From a virus (taxonomy: Duplodnaviria > Caudoviricetes), in the IMG/VR virus record IMGVR_UViG_3300037478_000191, positions 1-52,787 of that record: a stretch of DNA of 52,787 nt; one strand, given 5' to 3'. Made by a program: the position numbers and the translations under genes. Below are positions 5,290 through 41,107 of this stretch, in pieces; within the stretch, counting starts at the first letter, position 1; each line of letters starts with the position of its first letter. Below the pieces are notes generated by a model. That model did not search any database and had not been told where the DNA came from. It saw nothing but the letters and a program-made list of their open reading frames with translations.

Positions 5290-7640
5290 TGGCATTTCTT
5301 GACGCTGCCATGACCGGCGCGGCAGGTCAACCCGCGCCGCCGGCGAACGGCCAGCTATTCGACGAGATACTCGCGCTTGAAGGGGGCGAGGACATTCCGG
5401 CCGAACAGGAAGAACGCCCCTTCGAACAGCTCGTCAACTGGATAAAGTCGAAGAACATCGCGGAAGAATTCGACGATACCGAGCTGCAGAAGATCGGCCG
5501 TCAGGTTATCCGCGAGTTCGACATCGATGACCAGAGCCGTTCCGAGTGGATGGAGGAAAACCGCGAAGCCTTCAAGCTCGCGATGCAGGTGGCGGAAGAA
5601 AAGACCCATCCGTGGCCGCGCGCGAGTAACGTGATCTTTCCGCTGATGACGGTTGCCGCGGTGCAGTTTGCCGCCAGAGCTTATCCTGCTATCGTTGCCG
5701 GGCGCAACGTCGTCAAGGGTGTCGTCATCGGCTCTGATGAAGGCACGCCGCAGATCGGTCCTGACGGCACACCGGTTGTCCAGATGCCCCAGGGTCAGTC
5801 CCAAGGGGCGATGCAGGGTCAGATGGGGCAAGGCCAGCCGCCGATGCCACAGGGCCAGCCGGGAGAAGCTGAGCAACCCCAGCAACTGCCTCAGCCCGTA
5901 TGGCAGACCCCGCCCGGTGCAAAACGCCAGCGCGCCGACAAGATCGCGTCCCACATGTCGCACCAGCTCCTTGACGAGATGGACGACTGGGAAGAGGACA
6001 CCGACAAGCTCCTGCATATCCTGCCGATCGCCGGGTGCTGCTTCCGCAAGACCTATTTTGATCCTGGTACGGGCCAGAACATTTCCGATCTGGCGATGGC
6101 GGAAAACGTTGTCATCAATTACTGGGCCAAGTCGATGACCCGCGCCGCGCGGATCTCCGAACGCGTCTGGTTTTATCCCCATGAGATCGAAGAGAACGAG
6201 CGCTCCGGCATCTGGCTGGAAAATGAATATCGCCATGCCGTCGAATCCGGCGATGATGAAGAGAGCCGGATTTCATCAGAGGACGACGACGCCCCGCATG
6301 AATTCATCGAGCAGCACCGCAGGCTTGATCTCGATGATGACGGCTATGCGGAACCCTATATCGTCACGGTTCACCGCGCAACATCCAAGGTGGTGCGGAT
6401 CGTCGCCCGCTATGATCCGGACGGCGTGAAGATCCGCGGCGACAAGATCGCACGCATCGAAGCCGTCGAGTATTATACCAAATACGATTTCATGCCGAAC
6501 CCTGAAGGCGGGATTTACGGCATCGGCCTCGGCAAGCTGCTGTCACCGCTCAATCATTCCGTCAATACGATCATCAACCAGTTGATCGATGCCGGCACGC
6601 TGGCGAACACGCCGTCCGGCTTTATCGGGCGCGGACTGTCGATGCATTCCGGCGCGGTCAAGTTCAAGATGGGCCAGTTCACGCCGGTCAATTCGCCCGG
6701 CTCGCGCATTCGCGAAGCGATCGTGCCGTTCGAATTCAAGGAGCCGAGCCAGGTATTGTTCATGCTGCTCGGCCTTGTCATCGATGCGGCGAAAGATGTG
6801 GCGTCGATCAAGGATGTGCTGACCGGCGAGACCGTATCGGCCAACATGTCCCCGACGACGCTGATGGGCATGATCGATCAGGGCTTGCAGGTGTTCGTCG
6901 GGATTTACAAGCGCGTTCACCGCGCGCTGAAGAAGGAACTCGACAAGCTTTACCGCCTCAACCGTGTCTATCTGGAAGACAATGCCGGGTTCGAGAATGG
7001 CGGGATCTGGACGCAGATCACCCGTGAGGATTACGAACACGGCTCCGGCGTCCAGCCGATCTCCGACCCGTCGATGGTCTCCAACCAGCAGAAGCTGGCG
7101 CGCGCCGAACTGTTGCGCAGCTACACCGGAGACCCGGACATCGACCAGATCAAGATCAAGCGCCGGACACTTGAGGCGGCTGATATCGAGGATATCGACG
7201 ATCTGTTCGTGAAGCAGAAGGGGCCGGACCCGGCAATGGTTGCGATGCAGGCGCAGATGGAGTTGGAACAGAAAAAGCTTCAGGTCGCTGAAGCCAAGGA
7301 AATGCGCGAAGCTCAGCAGTTCCAGGTAGAGGAACGGCGCGAGGCTGCGTTGTCGCGGGCCAAGGAAATCGAGACTTACGCCCGCGCCGTGCACTATCTT
7401 GCACAAGCGGACAAGGCAAGTGCAGATCAGGATATCGGCTGGGCGCGCGAGCAGCTCAGTTTCCTGAAGTTGCGCATGGAGGGCCTGAACGGGCGAACGG
7501 CACCGGCAAAGCCAAAGACCCAAGGAAGCAGACAGCCGCCAATGCCGAACGCCCGGCTTGCGCCGGATGGTAATTTCTACGTGCCCGATGAGACGCGGCC
7601 GGGACGGTTCCTGCGCGTGATTGAAGACATGGCTGCCTGA
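5289..7640 (+). CDS. Portal protein with C-terminal barrel and extra tail module
   Basis: 783 aa; PWPRASNV.FP...AAVQFAARAY, LDLDDDGYAEPYIVTV, INQLIDAGTLAN.P.GF motifs of podovirus portals. Confidence 0.9.
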   Translation: MAFLDAAMTGAAGQPAPPANGQLFDEILALEGGEDIPAEQEERPFEQLVNWIKSKNIAEEFDDTELQKIGRQVIREFDIDDQSRSEWMEENREAFKLAMQVAEEKTHPWPRASNVIFPLMTVAAVQFAARAYPAIVAGRNVVKGVVIGSDEGTPQIGPDGTPVVQMPQGQSQGAMQGQMGQGQPPMPQGQPGEAEQPQQLPQPVWQTPPGAKRQRADKIASHMSHQLLDEMDDWEEDTDKLLHILPIAGCCFRKTYFDPGTGQNISDLAMAENVVINYWAKSMTRAARISERVWFYPHEIEENERSGIWLENEYRHAVESGDDEESRISSEDDDAPHEFIEQHRRLDLDDDGYAEPYIVTVHRATSKVVRIVARYDPDGVKIRGDKIARIEAVEYYTKYDFMPNPEGGIYGIGLGKLLSPLNHSVNTIINQLIDAGTLANTPSGFIGRGLSMHSGAVKFKMGQFTPVNSPGSRIREAIVPFEFKEPSQVLFMLLGLVIDAAKDVASIKDVLTGETVSANMSPTTLMGMIDQGLQVFVGIYKRVHRALKKELDKLYRLNRVYLEDNAGFENGGIWTQITREDYEHGSGVQPISDPSMVSNQQKLARAELLRSYTGDPDIDQIKIKRRTLEAADIEDIDDLFVKQKGPDPAMVAMQAQMELEQKKLQVAEAKEMREAQQFQVEERREAALSRAKEIETYARAVHYLAQADKASADQDIGWAREQLSFLKLRMEGLNGRTAPAKPKTQGSRQPPMPNARLAPDGNFYVPDETRPGRFLRVIEDMAA

Positions 7641-32952: not shown

Positions 32953-33302
32953 CCGACCGCCTCAAATCCCTCACCGCGCTCTATCTCGTCATTCTTGGCT
33001 GCGCTCTCGCTGTCGTCTCCATGAAAGAAGACGATTACCGCTCTCGGGCGTCACGCCTCGATCTGAAAGTGATGACGCTGGAGATTAAAGGCCAGTCCAC
33101 TGTTATCGACCGCATGGGCGTCCTGAGAAATCAATCCCGCGCGAAAGCCGAACAGTTCGAAGCCGCCATGCTCCTGCTGACGATCGGTCTTGTGATCGGA
33201 TCGCTCGGCGCTCTGTTCGCCGCGCCGCTTGCGTTCATTCCGCTATTTGTAAGCGGGATTGCCGGGGCCGGGGCTGGCTACTTCGTCTGGCTGGCGGTGT
33301 GA
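32949..33302 (+). CDS. Membrane protein, holin candidate (CTG start at 32949 or ATG at 33021)
   Basis: Two C-terminal TMs plus one upstream in-frame TM; AAAGGA 8 nt before the CTG. Confidence 0.5.
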   Translation: MTDRLKSLTALYLVILGCALAVVSMKEDDYRSRASRLDLKVMTLEIKGQSTVIDRMGVLRNQSRAKAEQFEAAMLLLTIGLVIGSLGALFAAPLAFIPLFVSGIAGAGAGYFVWLAV

Positions 33303-33513
33303 AAGAATTATGGTTTTAAACCATACTTCACGCGACCTATTTCGACACGCATCGGAAATGGTCTGCATTTCTGCACACTAATCATGGCCGTGGCGTCACG
33401 AAGATGATCGGGCCAAAAGTACCTTCAAAGGGTACGTTAACCGGCTTAAGGTGCCTTTTAAGGCACTTTGTTCATATTCAGCCCTCACTCCCTAGGGGAT
33501 AGGAACCCTCACC

Positions 33514-33876
33514 CTATGGGAGAGGCTCGGTCTGCTCATGCAGTTCCTTGCGGAGCGTGCCCCAAGCTTCGATGTATTCGGCGCGTGTCAATTCCGAGTA
33601 TGGGTGAAGCATCGGCGAGCCTTCAACAGTGAAGCCCATCTGGCTATCGTCGCGTGTGTGAGCCTCTACAAGCGCGCGAATTGCCTTGTGGAGCCTAGAG
33701 CGTTCTACTTGCAGGATCAGGTTCGTCTGTCCAACGATCTCAGTGATCCCGTCGTGCTCGACGACAATCGGGACTGGCGTCTGCTGCGCTATGCGCCGCC
33801 AATGTTCGATTTCTCGTTGAGCTTCGGCGAGGTGTTCGCGGAGCTTGATGATTTCTCGGTCTTCCATAAATCGCAT
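33514..33876 (-). CDS. Moron-like hypothetical protein
   Basis: 120 aa, TAAGGTG RBS, own consensus promoter, antisense to the late operon. Confidence 0.65.
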   Translation of the reverse strand: MRFMEDREIIKLREHLAEAQREIEHWRRIAQQTPVPIVVEHDGITEIVGQTNLILQVERSRLHKAIRALVEAHTRDDSQMGFTVEGSPMLHPYSELTRAEYIEAWGTLRKELHEQTEPLP

Positions 33877-33911
33877 CAGACTATCACCTTAACCGATTGA
33901 ATCATCTGTAG

Positions 33912-33940
33912 ATTATACCACAGACTTACGAGCGGAGCAA
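33912..33940 (-). promoter_or_regulatory. Strong sigma70 promoter (extended -10)
   Basis: TTGCTC-N17-TATAAT with TGn extension on the - strand. Confidence 0.7.
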
Positions 33941-34004
33941 CGCCGATCTAGTCCATCGACGCTGCTCCTAGATCACCAAGCGAAAGAGGATCGCCTAATG
34001 ACCC
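33934..34004 (-). ncRNA. Candidate small antisense RNA (two hairpins)
   Basis: The 14-bp and 5-bp stems pair fully only on the - strand (G-U); TCCTC loop; TATGAT box at 34016-34011. Confidence 0.35.
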
Positions 34005-34052
34005 AGAGCAATCATAAGTAAAAACGGGACTGAAACATGGCAGCTACTACAA

Positions 34053-34322
34053 ATGCGGAGCAGGGTGCAAATGGATTGGGTCGCCGGTATGCTCGACCGG
34101 ATGCGGGAAAGTCAGCACGCGGATCGACAAGTACTGCTCAAGGTGTTAGAACATCAGGAGAAAATCATCGACCTGCTGTCAAACATGGAGCATACTCACA
34201 AGTCGAGACTCAGCGGCTTGGCGAGCGCCGCGAGCGGACTGATCGGCAAGGGGATCGCCGTTCTGGCGCTGCTGGCGCTCCAGGTGCCTCTCAAAGACAT
34301 CGTTCTGGCCGTAATGCCATGA
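34053..34322 (+). CDS. Coiled-coil plus C-terminal TM protein (holin/XhlA-like candidate)
   Basis: Amphipathic helix then GKGIAVLALLALQVPL; start may be 34071. Confidence 0.55.
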   Translation: MRSRVQMDWVAGMLDRMRESQHADRQVLLKVLEHQEKIIDLLSNMEHTHKSRLSGLASAASGLIGKGIAVLALLALQVPLKDIVLAVMP

Positions 34323-34504
34323 TGGACTGGGAGAAGCTGTTATCGGTCCTGATTGCATGCCTGCTGATCTTTACGCTGATACGGGCCAGCATCATTGCAG
34401 CGGGGAGCCAGGAGCAAGAGCCGATGTCGGCTGAGATTTCGTTTTTTGCCGCGCCGGTGCAATATGATGCGATCCCTATATGGAACGGGGTTAATCCGCG
34501 TTAG
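34319..34504 (+). CDS. Small membrane/secreted protein
   Basis: MDWEKLLSVLIACLLIFTLI...; ATGA-coupled; last + strand gene. Confidence 0.45.
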   Translation: MMDWEKLLSVLIACLLIFTLIRASIIAAGSQEQEPMSAEISFFAAPVQYDAIPIWNGVNPR

Positions 34505-34739
34505 GGTCTTTCCCCCAAGCTTCAGTGCTGCGTCCTCGAAACCAAGATTCGATATCGGCATTCTGCTCCCTCAAAGACTGTCCGTTCGGGCATATGCAGA
34601 AATTCAGCCGGCCCACGCGAAAACCTGCCGGCGTTATGCCAGATGCGCGTGAATCGATAATTCCCCAGTTGGCGCACAAGGTGCAATGCCTATCCAGGTA
34701 GTGTTTTTGCCAATAAGCTTCTACGGCGTCGTCGCTCAT
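34491..34739 (-). CDS. Small zinc-finger protein
   Basis: CTLC.N.G...C.CPNG. Confidence 0.6.
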   Translation of the reverse strand: MSDDAVEAYWQKHYLDRHCTLCANWGIIDSRASGITPAGFRVGRLNFCICPNGQSLREQNADIESWFRGRSTEAWGKDPNAD

Positions 34740-34972
34740 CTTCCCACCTCCGACCACCGCTCAAACTCTTCTGGCGTGAGCACTCTCTGCCAGACATAAT
34801 GGTTTGTCGTCGGGGCTGACAGCCCTTGCGTCATCCACGGGTTGCGGATTACCGGACACCCCGGAACGCTGATGTCCCATTCCTCGTTAACGATGACCTG
34901 ATTTTCATCGCGGTGCACGATGTAGGTTTTCAGCAGCCCCGGCGGATTGCCTCTATTCGGTAGCAGTTCCAT
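34736..34972 (-). CDS. Hypothetical protein
   Basis: GGAGGGG RBS, coupled ORF. Confidence 0.55.
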   Translation of the reverse strand: MELLPNRGNPPGLLKTYIVHRDENQVIVNEEWDISVPGCPVIRNPWMTQGLSAPTTNHYVWQRVLTPEEFERWSEVGR

Positions 34973-34987
34973 CTATCTTCCCCTCCA

Positions 34988-35227
34988 TCAGGCTGACGCC
35001 ATCTCCCGCGCCAGATCATCCAGATTAACGCAGTCGAGTTCATCGCCAACAGCGCAAAGCAGCCCCGTAGTTTCTGGATCACTCCAGACATCGGAGCTTT
35101 TTACGAAATCCCTGGTCACCTGATTTCCATAGTCTGAAGCTCTGGCTTTGACTGCGATGTACCATCTTCCGCCGGGCTTAAGCCTGATTGCGTAAGGCGT
35201 TTTCCCATAGTATCCATCGTCGTTCAT
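34988..35227 (-). CDS. Hypothetical protein
   Basis: GGGAG RBS. Confidence 0.55.
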   Translation of the reverse strand: MNDDGYYGKTPYAIRLKPGGRWYIAVKARASDYGNQVTRDFVKSSDVWSDPETTGLLCAVGDELDCVNLDDLAREMASA

Positions 35228-35279
35228 CTTCTATCTCCCTTTCTCTCCGGAGAGAAGGACGGGTTTAATGGAATAGGCG

Positions 35280-35516
35280 TCAATCTCGCCAAGGCCGCAT
35301 AGGCTGTGCATCGCGAACGAAATTATCCATCGAATGAAGATAGTCCCGGCAGCGTCCCCGCCCGATCGATCGGCAAAGCTGCTCACAGCAGAGCAACATC
35401 ACAGCATTGATGATCATCGCTTCATGCTCGGGATCTCCGCCGGCAATCGCCACGATATCCTCGAACGCCTTGTTGATCGGTGGCTCTTCCTCCATCTGAC
35501 GTTGATGGTCTGCCAT
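35280..35516 (-). CDS. Hypothetical protein
   Basis: AGGAG RBS. Confidence 0.6.
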   Translation of the reverse strand: MADHQRQMEEEPPINKAFEDIVAIAGGDPEHEAMIINAVMLLCCEQLCRSIGRGRCRDYLHSMDNFVRDAQPMRPWRD

Positions 35517-35585
35517 TTCGTTAATCTCCTATCCGCGTATAGAGCGTGCGGGGGAATGGGTGTTAGGCGGCGTCTTCCTCGGTCA

Positions 35586-35786
35586 TCAATTGCACTTCGG
35601 GCAAGGAAGTCCGCGTTTGTTCTCCGTGAGCGTCCATTCGTCTTCGATCCAGTCGGTATCATGCCCACAGTGAGGGCAGATGAACTGGATGCAATCTGGC
35701 CCGGCGTCTACAACGCGCATGCGTTTCAATCGCGGTTGGCGCGGCGCTTCGTGCTTATCGAATAGTGCGGCTTGTGCCTTAGTCAT
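35586..35786 (-). CDS. Zinc-ribbon protein
   Basis: CPHCGH.T.W...GLPCPKCN. Confidence 0.65.
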   Translation of the reverse strand: MTKAQAALFDKHEAPRQPRLKRMRVVDAGPDCIQFICPHCGHDTDWIEDEWTLTENKRGLPCPKCN

Positions 35787-36178
35787 TTCATCACCCATGG
35801 CAGGAACTCTGGGTCGTACCCGTCGCTGGAAAAATAATCGAGCGCACGCTGAACATCTGGATGCTCGAAGGCATCGAAGTGAGTTGAGAGCGCCCCGATA
35901 ACCTGATAGGCTTGCGCAGATTTGGTTTCGAGCGCCTCTATGCGGATTTTGGCGAACTGGCGTTCAGGAAGATCTTTCAACGCGAGAACCGAATTGCTGC
36001 TTATCTCCTTCAGGAGCGCAATCTGCTTTTCAGCTTCATGAAAATCGAACTCGCGAGCGTCTGCGATTTCTTTGTGAAGGGTGACTTGGGCTTCAAGATC
36101 GACTATTTTGGCGCGGATCTTCTCCTCAGCTTCCATTTGAAGCATGGCTTCGTGTTGATTTCTGAAAAAATCAGTCAT
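35783..36178 (-). CDS. Coiled-coil hypothetical protein
   Basis: GAGGTG RBS; coupled. Confidence 0.6.
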   Translation of the reverse strand: MTDFFRNQHEAMLQMEAEEKIRAKIVDLEAQVTLHKEIADAREFDFHEAEKQIALLKEISSNSVLALKDLPERQFAKIRIEALETKSAQAYQVIGALSTHFDAFEHPDVQRALDYFSSDGYDPEFLPWVMK

Positions 36179-36189
36179 TATCCATCACC

Positions 36190-36453
36190 TCACTGCATCG
36201 AATGGTGAGGCTTCGGAAAATCCGGCAGCCTCAGCCAGCGCATGATTTCAAAGTCATGCTCAAAATCTTCAATCACCCATTCGCCATCCATGCGCCCAGC
36301 CGTGAGCGCAACTTGTCCGCCTTTTGCGCAATCGCAGGTGATGGTGACGAGGACGACGAGGCCATAAGCCTCCTGCGGCGGCGGCTCTTTGGCCGGGTCT
36401 TTCCAGCGCCAGAGCGGTTCGCCGGTTTCACGTCTGCGTTTGGCTTCACCCAT
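36190..36453 (-). CDS. DUF551-like phage protein
   Basis: MGEAKRR start; W......PP...VLV...W.......W..LP..P. Confidence 0.55.
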   Translation of the reverse strand: MGEAKRRRETGEPLWRWKDPAKEPPPQEAYGLVVLVTITCDCAKGGQVALTAGRMDGEWVIEDFEHDFEIMRWLRLPDFPKPHHSMQ

Positions 36454-36775
36454 ATTGATACACCGGCATGGCATTGGCGTCCGCTGATCGATCAGTCCGC
36501 TCGACGTGACGCCGCTTTCCTGACATAAGCTTCCTGTAGACACGATCTCGCTGGTAGCCGCGTTCTGGCTTCAGTGGTGCGTCGCTCCATTTGCTTTCGA
36601 TGACGCCAGATTCCTCAGACTTCATGACGAACACATAAAAATCGGCAACGAAAACGTCAGCGCCGTTAATGATGTCAAATCCCCGACGCCACTCTGTAAA
36701 AGACATGGCGTCCAGTATGCGATCCGCCGCCGGCGGCCGGTTCCACCATTTGATAATCTTGTGTAGGATATTCAT
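36446..36775 (-). CDS. PadR-like winged-helix protein (putative)
   Basis: G.DI......FY.....E..G.I.S.W......R.R.YR. Confidence 0.5.
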   Translation of the reverse strand: MNILHKIIKWWNRPPAADRILDAMSFTEWRRGFDIINGADVFVADFYVFVMKSEESGVIESKWSDAPLKPERGYQRDRVYRKLMSGKRRHVERTDRSADANAMPVYQYG

Positions 36776-36963
36776 CACCGCCACCGAACGTAGACAGGCA
36801 TCAAGAACATTTCATACCTCGGCCCCTCGCGCAGTTTTTCCTCGTGCATCTTGGCGAGCCTCTTCATTGCCGCATGAGCGTCTTCTGCCCTGACGGTGAC
36901 GTAACAGCCGTCATCGTAGCCGATCTTAACGTCGTTGAATTTGAACGTCTGCATTTGGCTCAT
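36775..36963 (-). CDS. Hypothetical protein
   Basis: GGAGGG RBS. Confidence 0.5.
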   Translation of the reverse strand: MSQMQTFKFNDVKIGYDDGCYVTVRAEDAHAAMKRLAKMHEEKLREGPRYEMFLMPVYVRWR

Positions 36964-36997
36964 TTTCTTCCCTCCATGAACTTTCTGCGAACGGCGC

Positions 36998-37298
36998 TGT
37001 GTCAAGATTGTGCCGCACTTCGGTTTTTCGCCTTGCAGGTTTTTGCTTCGTTCTGCATGCCTGTGCGGTCATAACGAGAACGCTGCACACTCGGAAACCC
37101 TTTGCCACATAAAGAAAACCCTTGCCCTATCCCACCTGATGACCTATCCCCTTCAGCGGGACACCTCACCCCAACGTGGGTAAAGGCATTGGATGTTTCT
37201 AGTTAACCATGTAACTATCTGTATTTAAAGGTAAATCCATCGGTTTTCGGCGAAATTTTCGACCCCTCTTTTTTGGAGGGTGCGCCACGATTGTGTCA
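36998..37298. other. Putative attP region with two arm-type repeat pairs
   Basis: TGTGTCAAGATTGTGCCG (36998-37015) and TGCGCCACGATTGTGTCA (37281-37298), 13/18 identical, each a TGYGYC tandem with 11-bp period, flanking a non-coding gap downstream of int. Confidence 0.5.
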
Positions 37299-37723
37299 GT
37301 CAACGCGGCTGTGACGGCCTCCTTAGCTTGGTCCAGAGTGCACGAGAACCATTCCCCCTTTCTGCGAAAAGGTTGCAGACTTTTGTGAGCACACCTTTCC
37401 ACGCGTAGGGCGTCCTCATAGCGAACCTTCTCGACATGAGCGATGCTGACCGATCGCGATGAGCCGGTCTGAATCCCGCTGGCACGTTTGTTAACATCGA
37501 CCGCAATTCCTATTTTGAAATGGCGTCCGTCGCTGATGATGTAGACCGCCCGGAATTCATGCTGGATGCGGGGCAGTCTTTTCAGTTTAGCCTCTTCCCG
37601 CCTTGCGAGTTCCGCAGCTATTTCCGGATCGCGGGTAGCGAGTGATTTTCGAATGCGTTTGCCGTCAATCGTCCCGTGGACATAGGCGACCCCAGAACGC
37701 CATTTGAGTGTAAGACCAGGCAT
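37199..37723 (-). CDS. Integrase N-terminal domain fused to GIY-YIG (T5orf172/MUG113-like) nuclease
   Basis: N-terminus 25/42 identical to the Int N-terminus; VYII....FKIGI..D...R...IQTG...VE...H..L...R..GEWF. Confidence 0.8.
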   Translation of the reverse strand: MPGLTLKWRSGVAYVHGTIDGKRIRKSLATRDPEIAAELARREEAKLKRLPRIQHEFRAVYIISDGRHFKIGIAVDVNKRASGIQTGSSRSVSIAHVEKVRYEDALRVERCAHKSLQPFRRKGEWFSCTLDQAKEAVTAALTDTIVAHPPKKRGRKFRRKPMDLPLNTDSYMVN

Positions 37724-38751
37724 CAACTTCCTTTCGCTGTTTTCAGTCTAGGTTTAGGGAGCGGGACGTTGCCGAAAGTGTCCTCCACGAACCCGGCCAT
37801 GTCTTCAGGGTGTGCATAGTGTTTCAGCAACGTCTGCGTGTCTTTCCAATTTCCGGTCTTCGCGACCATGATCACATTCTTGCCCTGGCGTGTGACCGCT
37901 TCCGTCGCGAATGAATGCCGGCCCGCCTCATACGGCGTCACATAGTCGATGCCGGCCAACCTGCATGTCTTCTTCCACGGTTCGATCGGTCCCTTGAGAT
38001 CGGCCCATCCGAAAATTCGCCACTCGCCTTTGTACTGCCCCTTCAAAATCTTTTTCGGCGGCAGCGTCCGCAGAACGTGCGTCATCTCGGCGGTCAGCCA
38101 GAATTCGCGGCGCTCGCCATTCTTGGTCATCGTCCGGCTGACGCCGTATTGCCGTTCCAGATCAAGATTGTCCGGCATCAGCATGATGGCCTCGGTCGGC
38201 CGCGCAGCGGTCGTGTGCAAAAACAGCGCATAGGCGGCAAGGTGCGGCGAGGTCGCGTGCGCCATGAAGCGATTGATCCATTCGCGGTTGATCGCCCGCT
38301 TTACCTTGGGATCGACGGACTTGAACCTCTTGATGCGGATCGGCGCGCATAGCCCGAGGTCATGCGCGAAATTGATCACCGCGCTCACCGGAACGACAAC
38401 CTGCCGGTTCCAGGTCTGCGGCTTGCATGTCGGATAGAGCTGCTTCGCCAGCACCTTCACTTTTCCCGGCTTGATCTCGGCCAGTCTCATTTTCCCCAGG
38501 CAGCGAATGATCGGCGCAAGATAGTCCTTGTCCGGCGGCGCATGGTTCAGGTATTGGACACAAGCGTCAGCGAAGGTTGCCTCGTTTTCTTCGCCGTAGA
38601 TGTTGGCGCGGTCGCGGCGCGCCTCTTCTTGCGCTCGCTTAAGTTCCGCGATTTTCGGGTCGCGAGTTCCAAGGCTTTTTCGTATGCGTCCACTGCCAGA
38701 TGTCCCGTGGAGGTACGCGATCCCGTTTCGCCACTTGATTTTGAGCGCCAT
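37723..38751 (-). CDS. int: Tyrosine integrase
   Basis: TAARPTEA (R), TKNG (K), YEAGRHSFAT (xxRH), GNW (W), KHYAH (Y). Confidence 0.92.
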   Translation of the reverse strand: MALKIKWRNGIAYLHGTSGSGRIRKSLGTRDPKIAELKRAQEEARRDRANIYGEENEATFADACVQYLNHAPPDKDYLAPIIRCLGKMRLAEIKPGKVKVLAKQLYPTCKPQTWNRQVVVPVSAVINFAHDLGLCAPIRIKRFKSVDPKVKRAINREWINRFMAHATSPHLAAYALFLHTTAARPTEAIMLMPDNLDLERQYGVSRTMTKNGERREFWLTAEMTHVLRTLPPKKILKGQYKGEWRIFGWADLKGPIEPWKKTCRLAGIDYVTPYEAGRHSFATEAVTRQGKNVIMVAKTGNWKDTQTLLKHYAHPEDMAGFVEDTFGNVPLPKPRLKTAKGS

Positions 38752-38924
38752 AGCTTCGTTTCCTGCAGGAGCTGTTGAAAGTCCTCAAGCTCAAGATACA
38801 TCTTGCCGCCGATGACGGAACAGCATTTGTGCTCGCGGATCGTCTTGCGAAGCTCGCGCTCAGACACGCCGGGCAGAAGCTCGACAACTTCTTCGATCGT
38901 CAACGGCGCGTAGAATGTCGTCAC
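38547..38924 (-). CDS. Excisionase-like HTH protein overlapping the int start
   Basis: LTIEEV...L..VSER.LR...R...G..Y winged HTH; position. Confidence 0.65.
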   Translation of the reverse strand: MTTFYAPLTIEEVVELLPGVSERELRKTIREHKCCSVIGGKMYLELEDFQQLLQETKLWRSKSSGETGSRTSTGHLAVDAYEKALELATRKSRNLSERKKRRAATAPTSTAKKTRQPSLTLVSNT

Positions 38925-39145
38925 TGATCGTCTCCGGTGTTGAGGTTAGAAGCGCAAGCGAGCGCCGCGCTACGTGGCGACTTCCATCCGCAAAGCCTCA
39001 TGATCTCTCGAAAACTGTAGCCGTGATCTCGAAGCGCTCTGGCCATGATCCTCTTTGCCGCCTGTTCATCGTATTGGTTTGCCGGTGGCTCAATCTGTCC
39101 AGTGCCTTCACAGATCGGGCAGCGCATTTGCGGTGCGTCGCTCAT
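38921..39145 (-). CDS. Zn-knuckle plus HTH small protein
   Basis: CPICEGTG; LRDHGYSFREI..L.GW.SP. Confidence 0.65.
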   Translation of the reverse strand: MSDAPQMRCPICEGTGQIEPPANQYDEQAAKRIMARALRDHGYSFREIMRLCGWKSPRSAALACASNLNTGDDQ

Positions 39146-39405
39146 ATCTTCCTGACCTTGAAAACCTCGACAAACACATTGACCGGTTCCTCCGGCTGCT
39201 GTTCAGTCGAGTACCATTTGATCATCGTCTCGGCGTCCATCCCGTAGTTGAAGACGAGGCAGCGGATCATTCCGATTGAGAGCGGGCGCTTGCGGTTCAT
39301 GATCTCCGAGATCCTGCCCGCTGTTCCCAAGGCAGCCATCAAGTGACGGCTCGTCCAGTTTCGTTCCAAAAGCATGGTTTCGATGGCGTCGATCGGGTCA
39401 GACAT
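39142..39405 (-). CDS. HigA-like HTH domain protein (orphan)
   Basis: DPIDAI..M......L...LG..GRISEI.NRKRPLS..MIR.L....G..AE..I. Confidence 0.7.
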   Translation of the reverse strand: MSDPIDAIETMLLERNWTSRHLMAALGTAGRISEIMNRKRPLSIGMIRCLVFNYGMDAETMIKWYSTEQQPEEPVNVFVEVFKVRKI

Positions 39406-39673
39406 CGGATTTCTCATCCTTATCCTTAGCCGCGGCCTCTTCCCAGGCTTTGCGCAGGACGGCTGCCATCTCGCGCTCCTGTTCAAGGTACTTGTCGGCT
39501 GCGTCCTGATCGACGTATCCTTCACCCCAGCAGAGCGGGCAGTCTTTCTCGCCGTAATTTTCGCAGAAGCATTGGTCGCCGCCGCAATAGCAGTTGACCG
39601 TGCGGTGGCCGTCGCATCGCGGGCAAGTCACGCCTTCTTCATCGAAATAATCTTCGTCGTAATCGTCGCTCAC
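39398..39673 (-). CDS. DnaJ-type zinc-finger small protein
   Basis: CPRCDG...CPLCWGEG repeats; GTG start. Confidence 0.6.
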   Translation of the reverse strand: MSDDYDEDYFDEEGVTCPRCDGHRTVNCYCGGDQCFCENYGEKDCPLCWGEGYVDQDAADKYLEQEREMAAVLRKAWEEAAAKDKDEKSDV

Positions 39674-39861
39674 TGGTCGCCTCCGGTGTTCTGAAAGGGG
39701 CTGATGCCGCTCATGACGATAGGTTTTTCGCGGCAGAGCGAGACGACATCCTCCAAGTGCTCGTTGCATACGAAGACGACTGAGCCGGATTCGGCCACCA
39801 TATGCTCGGTTCTGTTTGAACACTCTCGATGCATGCAAATCTTGAATGCGGGGTCATTCAT
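39670..39861 (-). CDS. Small Cys/His protein
   Basis: C...C......VC.EH. Confidence 0.5.
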   Translation of the reverse strand: MNDPAFKICMHRECSNRTEHMVAESGSVVFVCNEHLEDVVSLCREKPIVMSGISPFQNTGGDQ

Positions 39862-40060
39862 CTGTCTTCTCCGCCGTATCCGGGATGTAGGAGGGGCAGC
39901 AGAAATCATGCGCGGTCAGACCTTGAATGATGGTCATGACGGCATGCTCGTTTACCGGACGCTTAACGACGCAATGGCCAACAGATTGCGGCTCATCATC
40001 TGCGAGCAGGACGACGCGCCAGTGTTCCCAGAACTTGCAGGTGGAGCAGGTGTCAGGCAT
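39854..40060 (-). CDS. Small Cys-rich metal-binding phage protein
   Basis: CSTCKFW...G.C...P...DFCC. Confidence 0.6.
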   Translation of the reverse strand: MPDTCSTCKFWEHWRVVLLADDEPQSVGHCVVKRPVNEHAVMTIIQGLTAHDFCCPSYIPDTAEKTDE

Positions 40061-40223
40061 CGGGTTCCTCCTTGGGAGCCGGGATGTAGGAATCACAGCA
40101 CGGCCGGCCGCGACGTTGGAAATCTGCAAAGCTCTGCCATACCAGTGACGCCGGAGCCGTGAACCTGTAACAGTGATCCTTGCTGGGACAGAAAGAGTCA
40201 GCGCATTTGCTGATGTCAGACAT
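40053..40223 (-). CDS. Small Cys-rich protein (56 aa; not in ORF track)
   Basis: MSDISKCADSFCPSKDHCYRFTAPASLVWQSFADF...; AAGGAG RBS. Confidence 0.6.
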   Translation of the reverse strand: MSDISKCADSFCPSKDHCYRFTAPASLVWQSFADFQRRGRPCCDSYIPAPKEEPDA

Positions 40224-40455
40224 CGACATTCTCCTTTGGCGCGCGCCTTACCATTGCAGCTCGCTCCAGCGGCAACCCAAGCGCCTGAATTATTTTGATG
40301 ACTGTGAAGAAGCCTGGATTGGATACGTGCCCCGTTTCAATCTGCGAGATCAGTGCGTTCGAGATGCCTGATTGTTTTTCGAGATCGCGCAAAGTCCAGC
40401 CCTTGAGTCCTCGCGCCAAACTGATAATCTCGCCAAGAGAGATGTCACTTGCCAT
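40216..40455 (-). CDS. XRE-family HTH regulator
   Basis: R..KGWTLRDL...SGIS...ISQIETG...NP. Confidence 0.85.
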   Translation of the reverse strand: MASDISLGEIISLARGLKGWTLRDLEKQSGISNALISQIETGHVSNPGFFTVIKIIQALGLPLERAAMVRRAPKENVDV

Positions 40456-41107
40456 TGGCCAACTCCAGCAAACGACAATGGTCTACCCCTTGTGTCAGCG
40501 CGCGGTCTGGAGACCAATTCCGCCGAAGCCTAGTGATGATTGTATTGGGCTTTAGCCCAAGTATCTCCCCCCACTCTTGAACCGTCTTTTGGTGCCCTCG
40601 CCACTCGACGATATGGTTGTTTCGCCGGTTGCGTTGCTGCTCAACTCGTGTTGCCCAGCAACAATTATCTGGAGAATAGGGACCATTCACGTTTCTTCGC
40701 TCAATCTCCAATTCGGGGGAGAACGTAGATTTCATGTCTGTCGAAAAGTTCTCAAACCGAAGCCATCGATCGCAAACAGTGATGCCGCGACCGCCGTAAT
40801 TATGATAATGACCGTGCGATGAGTTCATGGTGCGTGCGAGCATTCCTTGCCATCTTTGATAAAGAGGCGTGTTAGTTTGCCCGTGTGTTCGCGCGCGTTG
40901 CGCCGCAGACTTTACTCCGCACCCGCAAGTGCGCGCCCTGCCTTGGGTAAGGCCGCTGCCTCGAACTGCTGTATAAGACCCGCACTTGCATTTACAAAGC
41001 CACGTATAGGCACCATGCCGATCCTTGCCGTACTCGCCAATTACAATTAAATCCCCGAATATTTTACCGCTCAATTCGCGCTTTGCTGGCATCGGTTTGT
41101 CACTCAT
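40445..41107 (-). CDS. HNH homing-endonuclease-like protein
   Basis: Same family as 823-1476: WLCKC.CG, YGGRGITVCDRW, IERRNVNGPYSPDNC.WAT. Confidence 0.88.
   Translation of the reverse strand: MSDKPMPAKRELSGKIFGDLIVIGEYGKDRHGAYTWLCKCKCGSYTAVRGSGLTQGRARTCGCGVKSAAQRARTHGQTNTPLYQRWQGMLARTMNSSHGHYHNYGGRGITVCDRWLRFENFSTDMKSTFSPELEIERRNVNGPYSPDNCCWATRVEQQRNRRNNHIVEWRGHQKTVQEWGEILGLKPNTIITRLRRNWSPDRALTQGVDHCRLLELANGK

Follow-up and report, generated by a model that had tools for sequence, protein, structure and literature searches.

The window analysed here is the whole of IMG/VR record IMGVR_UViG_3300037478_000191 (Caudoviricetes; 52,787 bp, class linear, CheckV completeness 100). Directly behind its tyrosine integrase gene, int, lies a small gene, called here gene 2, whose product joins an integrase-type N-terminal domain (the head) to a T5orf172 domain. 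What would a phage do with a predicted nuclease that wears the head of an integrase? The reading favoured here, which we hold with about even confidence, is that gene 2 encodes a nuclease directed at the sites its integrase (Int)-type head recognises (arm sites) and serving either for homing or against rivals. This reading is favoured because the borrowed address is an integrase head, because the gene stands beside int as an optional cassette and because there is a precedent in Odn, the nuclease of phage ICP1.

Gene 2 and the domains of its product

The architecture of the gene 2 product, its conservation, its key residues, its fold and its presence or absence in relatives are matters of observation. 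The initial annotation had the gene overlapping the int stop, and a reading of the sequence bears this out: the letter A of the int TGA is also the A of the gene 2 ATG, and GGAAG, which resembles a Shine-Dalgarno sequence, is found within the end of int just 5' of that ATG. The gene 2 product is probably co-made with Int through these overlapping stop and start codons. The likeness of the two N-termini, put earlier at 25/42 without gaps, came out the same on a recount, and BLASTP aligns gene 2 residues 3-44 with Int residues 2-42 at 26/42 identities with one gap (E 2e-13). The whole phage holds just two copies of the head, one in Int and one in gene 2; the phage genome contains no third head copy and no second T5orf172 gene. 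Behind the head, Pfam recovers the predicted T5orf172/GIY-YIG domain at residues 60-138, with both T5orf172 (PF10544; 45.7 bits against a cut-off of 20) and MUG113 (PF13455; 44.8 against 22.3) above threshold. The closest Pfam family for the two heads is DUF6538, which both match below its cut-off of 27 bits (20.7 bits for gene 2 and a weak 18.1 for Int), and a Pfam scan of the gene 2 head found no match to an Arm-DNA-bind family. The protein ends in a basic tail with the run KKRGRKFRRK, which recalls an AT-hook; in the family alignment this tail is limited to the window protein and one relative, P0001.

Is the T5orf172 domain still equipped to cut? A HMMER search of 1.84 billion representatives returned 2269 proteins at E <= 0.001 (18 at <= 1e-10 and two at <= 1e-30), and all counts and scans of representatives given below refer to the best 150 of these 2269. 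K70, R80, E109 and E124 are invariant over the 150, and conservation reaches at least 90% at Y61, G72, H113, G123, W125 and F126. In Odn (ICP1 gp88, NC_015157), E180 in the motif TEQRIH aligns with gene 2 E109 in VERCAH. The accessible text of PMC8263062 describes iteron-dependent cutting of the PLE origin by Odn and lists E180A as a predicted catalysis-abolishing (dead) control, and that of PMC10448857 speaks of T5orf172 nuclease activity as glutamate-dependent in the Odn case. Judged by these residues, the T5orf172 domain of gene 2 keeps the key positions of its family intact and is a predicted nuclease.

An AlphaFold2 model built from a 60-sequence alignment (mean predicted local distance difference test, pLDDT, 90.9; predicted template modelling score, pTM, 0.71) gives residues 1-50 as three strands and a helix, residues 57-148 as a beta-beta-alpha-beta-alpha-beta-alpha domain and residues 150-174 as a low-confidence tail. 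VIA-align was used to search 48,161 chains for similar folds. The C-terminal domain matched the GIY-YIG nucleases Slx1 (6seh_C, Z 7.2, root-mean-square deviation (rmsd) 2.9 over 89) and At-HIGLE (7wme_A, Z 7.1) and, more weakly, I-TevI (1ln0_A, Z 4.9) and UvrC (Z 3.9). The head matched a Plasmodium AP2 domain (6sy0_A, Z 5.1), the arm-type domain of the high-pathogenicity island (HPI) integrase (3jtz_A, Z 4.9, rmsd 2.1 over 47), residues 14-59 of lambda Int (1z1b_A, Z 4.5) and lambda Int 1-64 on P'2 DNA (2wcc, Z 4.3). When the full two-domain model was run through Foldseek against the PDB, no match reached E <= 0.001 and only ribosomal-protein noise came back. BFVD gave 187 matches at E <= 0.001, and the 50 best among them were mostly T5orf172, GIY-YIG, MUG113 or Bro proteins; the ESM Atlas search returned T5orf172 clusters only. 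Could gene 2 be the excisionase, or recombination directionality factor, of this phage? This was considered and rejected: the modelled head is a sheet plus a helix with no helix-turn-helix (HTH), and a separate open reading frame (ORF) with a weak HTH_17 match lies 5' of int.

A rare family with a conserved head

The architecture search that the initial annotation had proposed turned up four further clusters among the 150 representatives that carry the full architecture, matching gene 2 along both domains from the N-terminus on: P0001 (94% identical), P0002 (49%), P0003 (40%) and P0004 (39%). P0001 comes from a JGI source and the other three from Logan assemblies, with one contig on record for each, of 8153, 5195, 3118 and 1857 nt. 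A profile search of a 5.8-billion collection found no further member with the full architecture; its additions were two Int fragments (P0152 and P0154) and a T5orf172 protein without the head (P0153), and the sole result of a search for longer proteins was P0151, which combines T5orf172 and an HTH in a membrane protein. Contig collections were equally sparing. Viral contigs searched with gene 2 alone gave no locus; searched with the family alignment they gave 77, whose ORF matches and five inspected examples show no Int head, the five having Zn-finger-like or other heads before T5orf172. Genome contigs gave four loci, among them an Int homologue (L080) and a T5orf172 gene with a different head (L079). 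The metagenome contigs gave 68, of which only two are relevant: L083, discussed below, and L084, an Int homologue whose contig stops 102 nt past the int stop and shows no coupled gene. A second locus with Int head plus T5orf172 was found in none of the viral, genome and metagenome contig scans, which may have lacked records very close to the window. On sequence grounds, the family is real but rare.

The Int homologue L080, in an alphaproteobacterial metagenome-assembled genome (MAG), is split at 5420-6647 into two overlapping ORFs (5420-6085 and 5991-6647), and is probably a frameshifted prophage integrase.

What has selection kept in this small family? The alignment of the five sequences has 35 invariant columns, 16 of them in the head, and in each of the nine non-trivial pairs identity is higher in the head (46-69%) than in the nuclease domain (31-41%). 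The gene 2 head is 65%, 55% and 56% identical to those of P0002, P0003 and P0004, and 51%, 52% and 42% identical to the heads of the window Int, the L084 Int and the L080 Int, respectively. Because the head is nearer to the P0002-P0004 heads than to its own Int, the fusion appears to be old and inherited as a unit. Co-evolution of the two N-terminal domains, which had been suggested as a check, does not show in these values, and the sequences give no sign of an ongoing exchange between the gene 2 head and the neighbouring int.

These data also bear on the least flattering account of gene 2, namely that a partial copy of int, fused by chance to a nuclease remnant, is decaying there without function. 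The family is tiny (the window protein and four clusters, each on a single contig) and close relatives do without the gene, both of which would suit such an account. The open frame, the confident fold (pLDDT 90.9), the intact catalytic-type residues and an architecture kept with its 35 invariant columns down to 39% identity all speak against it. A one-off duplication, as feared in the initial annotation, is not what the four other clusters look like, and since the head is conserved above the nuclease domain in every non-trivial pair, decay is disfavoured; we consider it very improbable.

Gene 2 as an optional cassette

If gene 2 were a homing gene, relatives lacking it should exist. Sampled words of the window were shared with a sediment metagenome, run X1, to 95%, and with thirteen other runs to 5-14%; X1 may thus be the sample from which the phage came. 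Logan contigs of runs X1, X2, X3 and X5 were mapped to 33000-41000 at 80% likeness, and contigs bridging gene 2 were found in three of the four (X1, X3 and X5), so that relatives without the gene, as the homing model needs them, are indeed on record. In X1 one contig joins 37182 to 37789 (side of 30 letters). In X3 and X5 the joint runs from 37187 to 37771 with 91 other letters between, with a side of 115 letters in X3 and of 31 in X5; the X3 record, 465 nt long, shows 18 differences over 37073-37187 and four over 37771-37896. A further X1 joint, from 35021 to 37020 (side 26), has the same contig depth. Gene 2 itself is covered in part by short X5 contigs, which show 13 differences over 188 nt and seven over 205 nt. 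X2 and X3 have little or no cover over gene 2, and this was not counted as evidence; contig depth is unfit for ranking genes, and the joints alone were used.

Because contigs join across gene 2, relatives appear to keep int beside the segment 37020-37187 without it, and one relative also does without the small genes at 35022-37019. Gene 2 is taken as an optional cassette because contigs from three runs join int to this segment directly.

In the source community the neighbourhood of int is a hot spot of mosaicism. X1 contigs skip 35022-37019, which holds six small ORFs on the - strand, and another contig skips 35531-39675.

Does gene 2 need to cut at all? Its product might be a DNA-binding accessory factor that occupies the sites of the Int head and biases integration versus excision, or represses transcription close to att, with T5orf172 as a binding or oligomerising module. 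Co-expression with Int through the stop/start overlap would suit such a factor, as would a head that is the best-conserved part of the protein. The domain has a history in this direction too: in the available portion of PMC8096241, T5orf172 was first predicted to be DNA-binding and CapR of PLE, which derives from the DNA-binding domain of a T5orf172 homing endonuclease, is a repressor, and PMC10448857, in the part available, notes that I-TevI also acts as a repressor. Yet the invariant T5orf172 residues, including the equivalent of Odn E180, are kept at only 31-41% domain identity, a separate Xis-like HTH_17 gene is already present 5' of int, and near relatives manage without gene 2. As close relatives lack it, gene 2 is no core part of the recombination module, and the accessory role seems to us unlikely.

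A model for the nuclease and its precedents

Its DNA target, cleavage, self-protection and role are what we infer for an arm-site-directed nuclease. In the proposed model, gene 2 would be a self-contained, optional nuclease cassette inserted directly behind int. The head, which would share its domain family with the arm-type head of this Int lineage, would dock the protein on the arm-type sites of attP, and the T5orf172 (GIY-YIG-type) domain would then cut the DNA nearby. Targets would be related phages or other integrative elements with the same kind of Int and without the cassette. The outcome could be homing-like copying of the cassette together with the int-att neighbourhood, or destruction of the rival in the manner of Odn acting on the PLE origin. 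How would the carrier spare its own DNA? The 0.5-kb cassette may part the docking site from the cutting site, an idea modelled on I-TevI, whose cutting is distance-dependent. With such a head joined to a nuclease domain, gene 2 probably cuts DNA at or near the attachment sites of related phages.

If the head does share the DNA address of Int, the integration machinery itself would be what this nuclease attacks, which would connect lysogeny with the biology of homing endonucleases. Mosaic int-att boundaries and the competition of phages for one chromosomal site could then find an explanation. The Odn principle, in which a nuclease borrows its DNA-binding domain, would be carried over from origins of replication to attachment sites, and a recombinase and a nuclease with one and the same head would make a compact, naturally programmable pair.

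The initial annotation knew of no described equivalent, and here Odn, the nearest device in print, calls for a correction, as it is a T5orf172 nuclease with the RepA DNA-binding domain of a rival. According to the accessible text of PMC8263062, its N-terminal domain shares 42% identity with RepA_N of the PLE satellite, and its cuts in the PLE origin fall at the RepA iterons. Odn and gene 2 have in common a modular, borrowed DNA address: an N-terminal DNA-binding head homologous to the head of another protein, followed by a C-terminal T5orf172 domain, with E180 corresponding to E109. They differ in the source of the head, which is a replication initiator for Odn and an integrase N-terminal (arm-type-like) domain for gene 2, and in the place of the donor-like gene, which lies in a rival element for Odn whereas for gene 2 it is in the same genome, directly upstream and coupled. 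Cutting by Odn has been demonstrated (PMC8263062, in the part available); gene 2 is known here from its sequence and model. Genes for RepA_N-T5orf172 proteins in E. coli phages are read, in the available text of PMC10448857, as repeated domestication of homing-endonuclease domains. Like Odn, these proteins are nucleases that cut the origin to which their borrowed head corresponds.

The other obvious relatives are the free-standing GIY-YIG/T5orf172 homing genes of phages (I-TevI, Seg and the ICP1 T5orf172 genes). Like these, gene 2 is a small intergenic cassette present or absent between conserved flanks, and it combines a nuclease domain with a separate DNA-binding module, the 'beads on a string' modularity of PMC10448857 (as far as its accessible text goes). 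I-TevI has the nuclease at the N-terminus and the HTH at the C-terminus, the opposite order to gene 2, and for gene 2 homing is a proposal only. In the survey described in the available part of PMC10448857, 200 of 229 T5orf172 homing endonucleases have Zn-finger heads (CapR, DUF723, DUF4397), and that part mentions no integrase-type head for them. A literature search found no described fusion of an integrase head to T5orf172; the supplementary head tables of PMC10448857 could mention one. The arm-type domains of integrases (lambda Int 1-64, HPI; AP2-like) resemble the gene 2 head, as modelled, in having a three-stranded sheet on a helix at the extreme N-terminus; the gene 2 head comes without core-binding and catalytic domains and its Z scores are middling. 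Finally, in homing endonucleases of the HNH-AP2 type (Magnani et al. 2004, cited by PMC10448857 in its accessible text) an AP2-fold head guides a small phage nuclease, as is proposed for gene 2; they have an HNH instead of a T5orf172/GIY-YIG domain, a reversed domain order and no link to an integrase gene.

Where would the head bind?

The model calls for an attP with arm sites. The segment 37020-37187 is the largest non-coding gap adjoining int. It contains CCTATCCC at 37126 and 37143, two of the three copies in the genome, and GAAAACCCTTGCC-like sequences at 37094 and 37114. Because it stays joined to int in relatives with differing flanks, it is a fair attP candidate, and no more than that. 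The initial annotation put attP on the far side of gene 2 from int; attP was not located, and the segment is a candidate for it only. No tRNA was found in the window and no tRNA-like Rfam match in 33000-40000, and a comparison of 36700-37300 with two alphaproteobacterial MAGs gave nothing significant (best E 0.005 over 27 nt). No read-level att junction was found. A 21-nt match in locus L152 was considered as attB; it is not a tRNA and was treated as chance.

Several observations weigh against an arm-site-directed nuclease. The stretch 37281-37298, announced earlier as a putative arm repeat, has no other copy within three mismatches anywhere in the 52.8-kb genome, its best local look-alike being a 10-mer at 37003 with one mismatch. 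Repeat pairs in 36990-37330 do not exceed those of shuffled sequences (5 versus 3.2 +/- 2.6, and 11 versus 3.75 +/- 3.2 with a maximum of 14). An attB-like match to 36990-37210 was seen in none of 301 alphaproteobacterial genomes, a search made with no positive control. The gene 2 head is no nearer to its own Int than to the foreign L084 Int, which means that tracking of the cognate partner is not seen. Its DUF6538 match stays under the Pfam cut-off, and arm-site binding by the Int head is itself putative. The arm-type matches of the modelled head (Z 4.3-5.1) are interspersed with many unrelated rows, and since these reach equal Z the fold evidence for the head is counted as moderate. The contig joints were taken at 80% likeness, two of them with short sides (30 and 31 letters), and may come from other organisms. 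Lastly, the phage's own att region should bear the same sites, in which case self-cutting would have to be avoided somehow.

Might gene 2 then be a free-standing homing or selfish T5orf172 nuclease with a target unrelated to att, a generic AP2-like DNA-binding head of merely incidental integrase descent and a place beside int that is an accident or reflects a hot spot for accessory genes? The negative arm-site search and the lack of any special nearness of the head to the cognate Int would both be expected. Homing endonucleases often have heads of the AP2 type (HNH-AP2; available text of PMC10448857), and T5orf172 pairs freely: many unrelated heads (HTH_36, KilA-N, MarR and others) occur in ones and twos among the 150 representatives. 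There are three counterarguments. The residues KWR.G.A..HGT..G.R.RKSL.TRD of the sheet are common to the Ints of the lineage and therefore argue for a shared mode of recognition by the gene 2 and Int heads. Gene 2 stands exactly between int and the segment that stays joined to int in the relatives lacking the gene. And fusions of T5orf172 to integrases or to Arm-DNA-bind_3 recur independently. Phage_integrase is found in two of the 150 representatives, P0029 (522 aa) and P0079 (437 aa), which are whole integrases with a C-terminal T5orf172/MUG113 domain and belong to two distinct 50%-identity clusters. Arm-DNA-bind_3 is found in one (P0048, E 4.7e-16, above the cut-off), joined to T5orf172. 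Weak DUF6538 matches occur in four, including P0113, which has a DUF6538-like head before T5orf172 and is only 26-29% identical to gene 2. On balance, a target unconnected with att strikes us as improbable.

How general is the link between integrases and T5orf172? On a metagenome contig (L083, 2027-3901) an integrase gene (394 aa) is followed after a 201 nt gap by a T5orf172 gene without the Int head. The spacer 3' of this int resembles a partial tRNA by eye; neither ARAGORN nor Rfam called it, and it was not used. As a control, 99 other T5orf172 ORFs in the fetched loci with an N-terminal extension of at least 30 aa were compared with their neighbours, and none shares its extension with a neighbouring ORF of at least 200 aa. 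Searches of viral contigs with P0113 and P0048 found none, and no deposited phage record covers at least 80% of P0048 or P0029. Taken over the sequences examined, the integrase-T5orf172 link is recurrent, yet a minority habit of the T5orf172 domain.

Returning to the arm-site-directed nuclease, a wider and more tentative proposal can be built on it, to which we give distinctly less credence: a class of attachment-site-directed homing nucleases, in which the cassette would use a copy of the Int head to find occupied att sites or the attP of related phages, cut beside them and so spread among phages together with the linked int-att module, or oust rivals that compete for one chromosomal site. 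If such a class exists, the P0029 and P0079 fusions would be the one-protein version of the same device.

Features and genome setting

Table 1. Positions in the window of gene 2, int and the elements around them
Feature	Position	Strand	Basis
Gene 2, 174 aa, Int-type head fused to T5orf172 (stop codon counted in)	37199..37723	-	ORF, Pfam, family alignment, structure model
TTGATG, int TGA overlapping gene 2 ATG (probable translational coupling)	37721..37726	-	Read from sequence
Gene 2 head, residues 1-50	37574..37723	-	Model: strands 5-9, 12-19, 22-27; helix 33-49
T5orf172/MUG113 (GIY-YIG superfamily) domain, residues 57-148	37280..37555	-	Pfam, fold matches, BFVD, invariant residues
Basic tail, residues 150-174, KKRGRKFRRK run	37202..37276	-	pLDDT 53-68 (low); family alignment
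Non-coding segment, attP candidate	37020..37187	.	Joints 37182 to 37789, 37187 to 37771, 35021 to 37020; direct repeats 37093-37151
Tyrosine integrase gene int, 342 aa	37723..38751	-	Pfam Phage_integrase residues 159-316, E 1.6e-8; PHROG 1 integrase, 5.7e-26
Int N-terminal head, residues 1-50, template-like copy	38602..38751	-	BLASTP match to gene 2 residues 3-44
Xis-like ORF 5' of int	38547..38924	-	Weak HTH_17, E 6.9e-4, 20.3 bits against cut-off 27

Late genes occupy the + strand up to about 34.5 kb and early genes the - strand beyond, a layout like that of P22-like temperate podoviruses. The host may be alphaproteobacterial, because the closest deposited integrases (28-35% identity) belong to phages of Rhizobium, Bradyrhizobium and Caulobacter. 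A promoter and terminator scan gave no signal exceeding shuffles, and the sole match of a PADLOC scan was a faint one to PDC-S57 (E 0.0054).

The tail of the Xis-like ORF runs about 200 nt into the start of int in a different frame. A like overlap into the Int homologue is seen in L084 (2-265, + strand), with a similar ORF tail (…ALELATRKSR…). This may be a real overlapping gene, or it may be a mere by-product of the conservation of the Int head.

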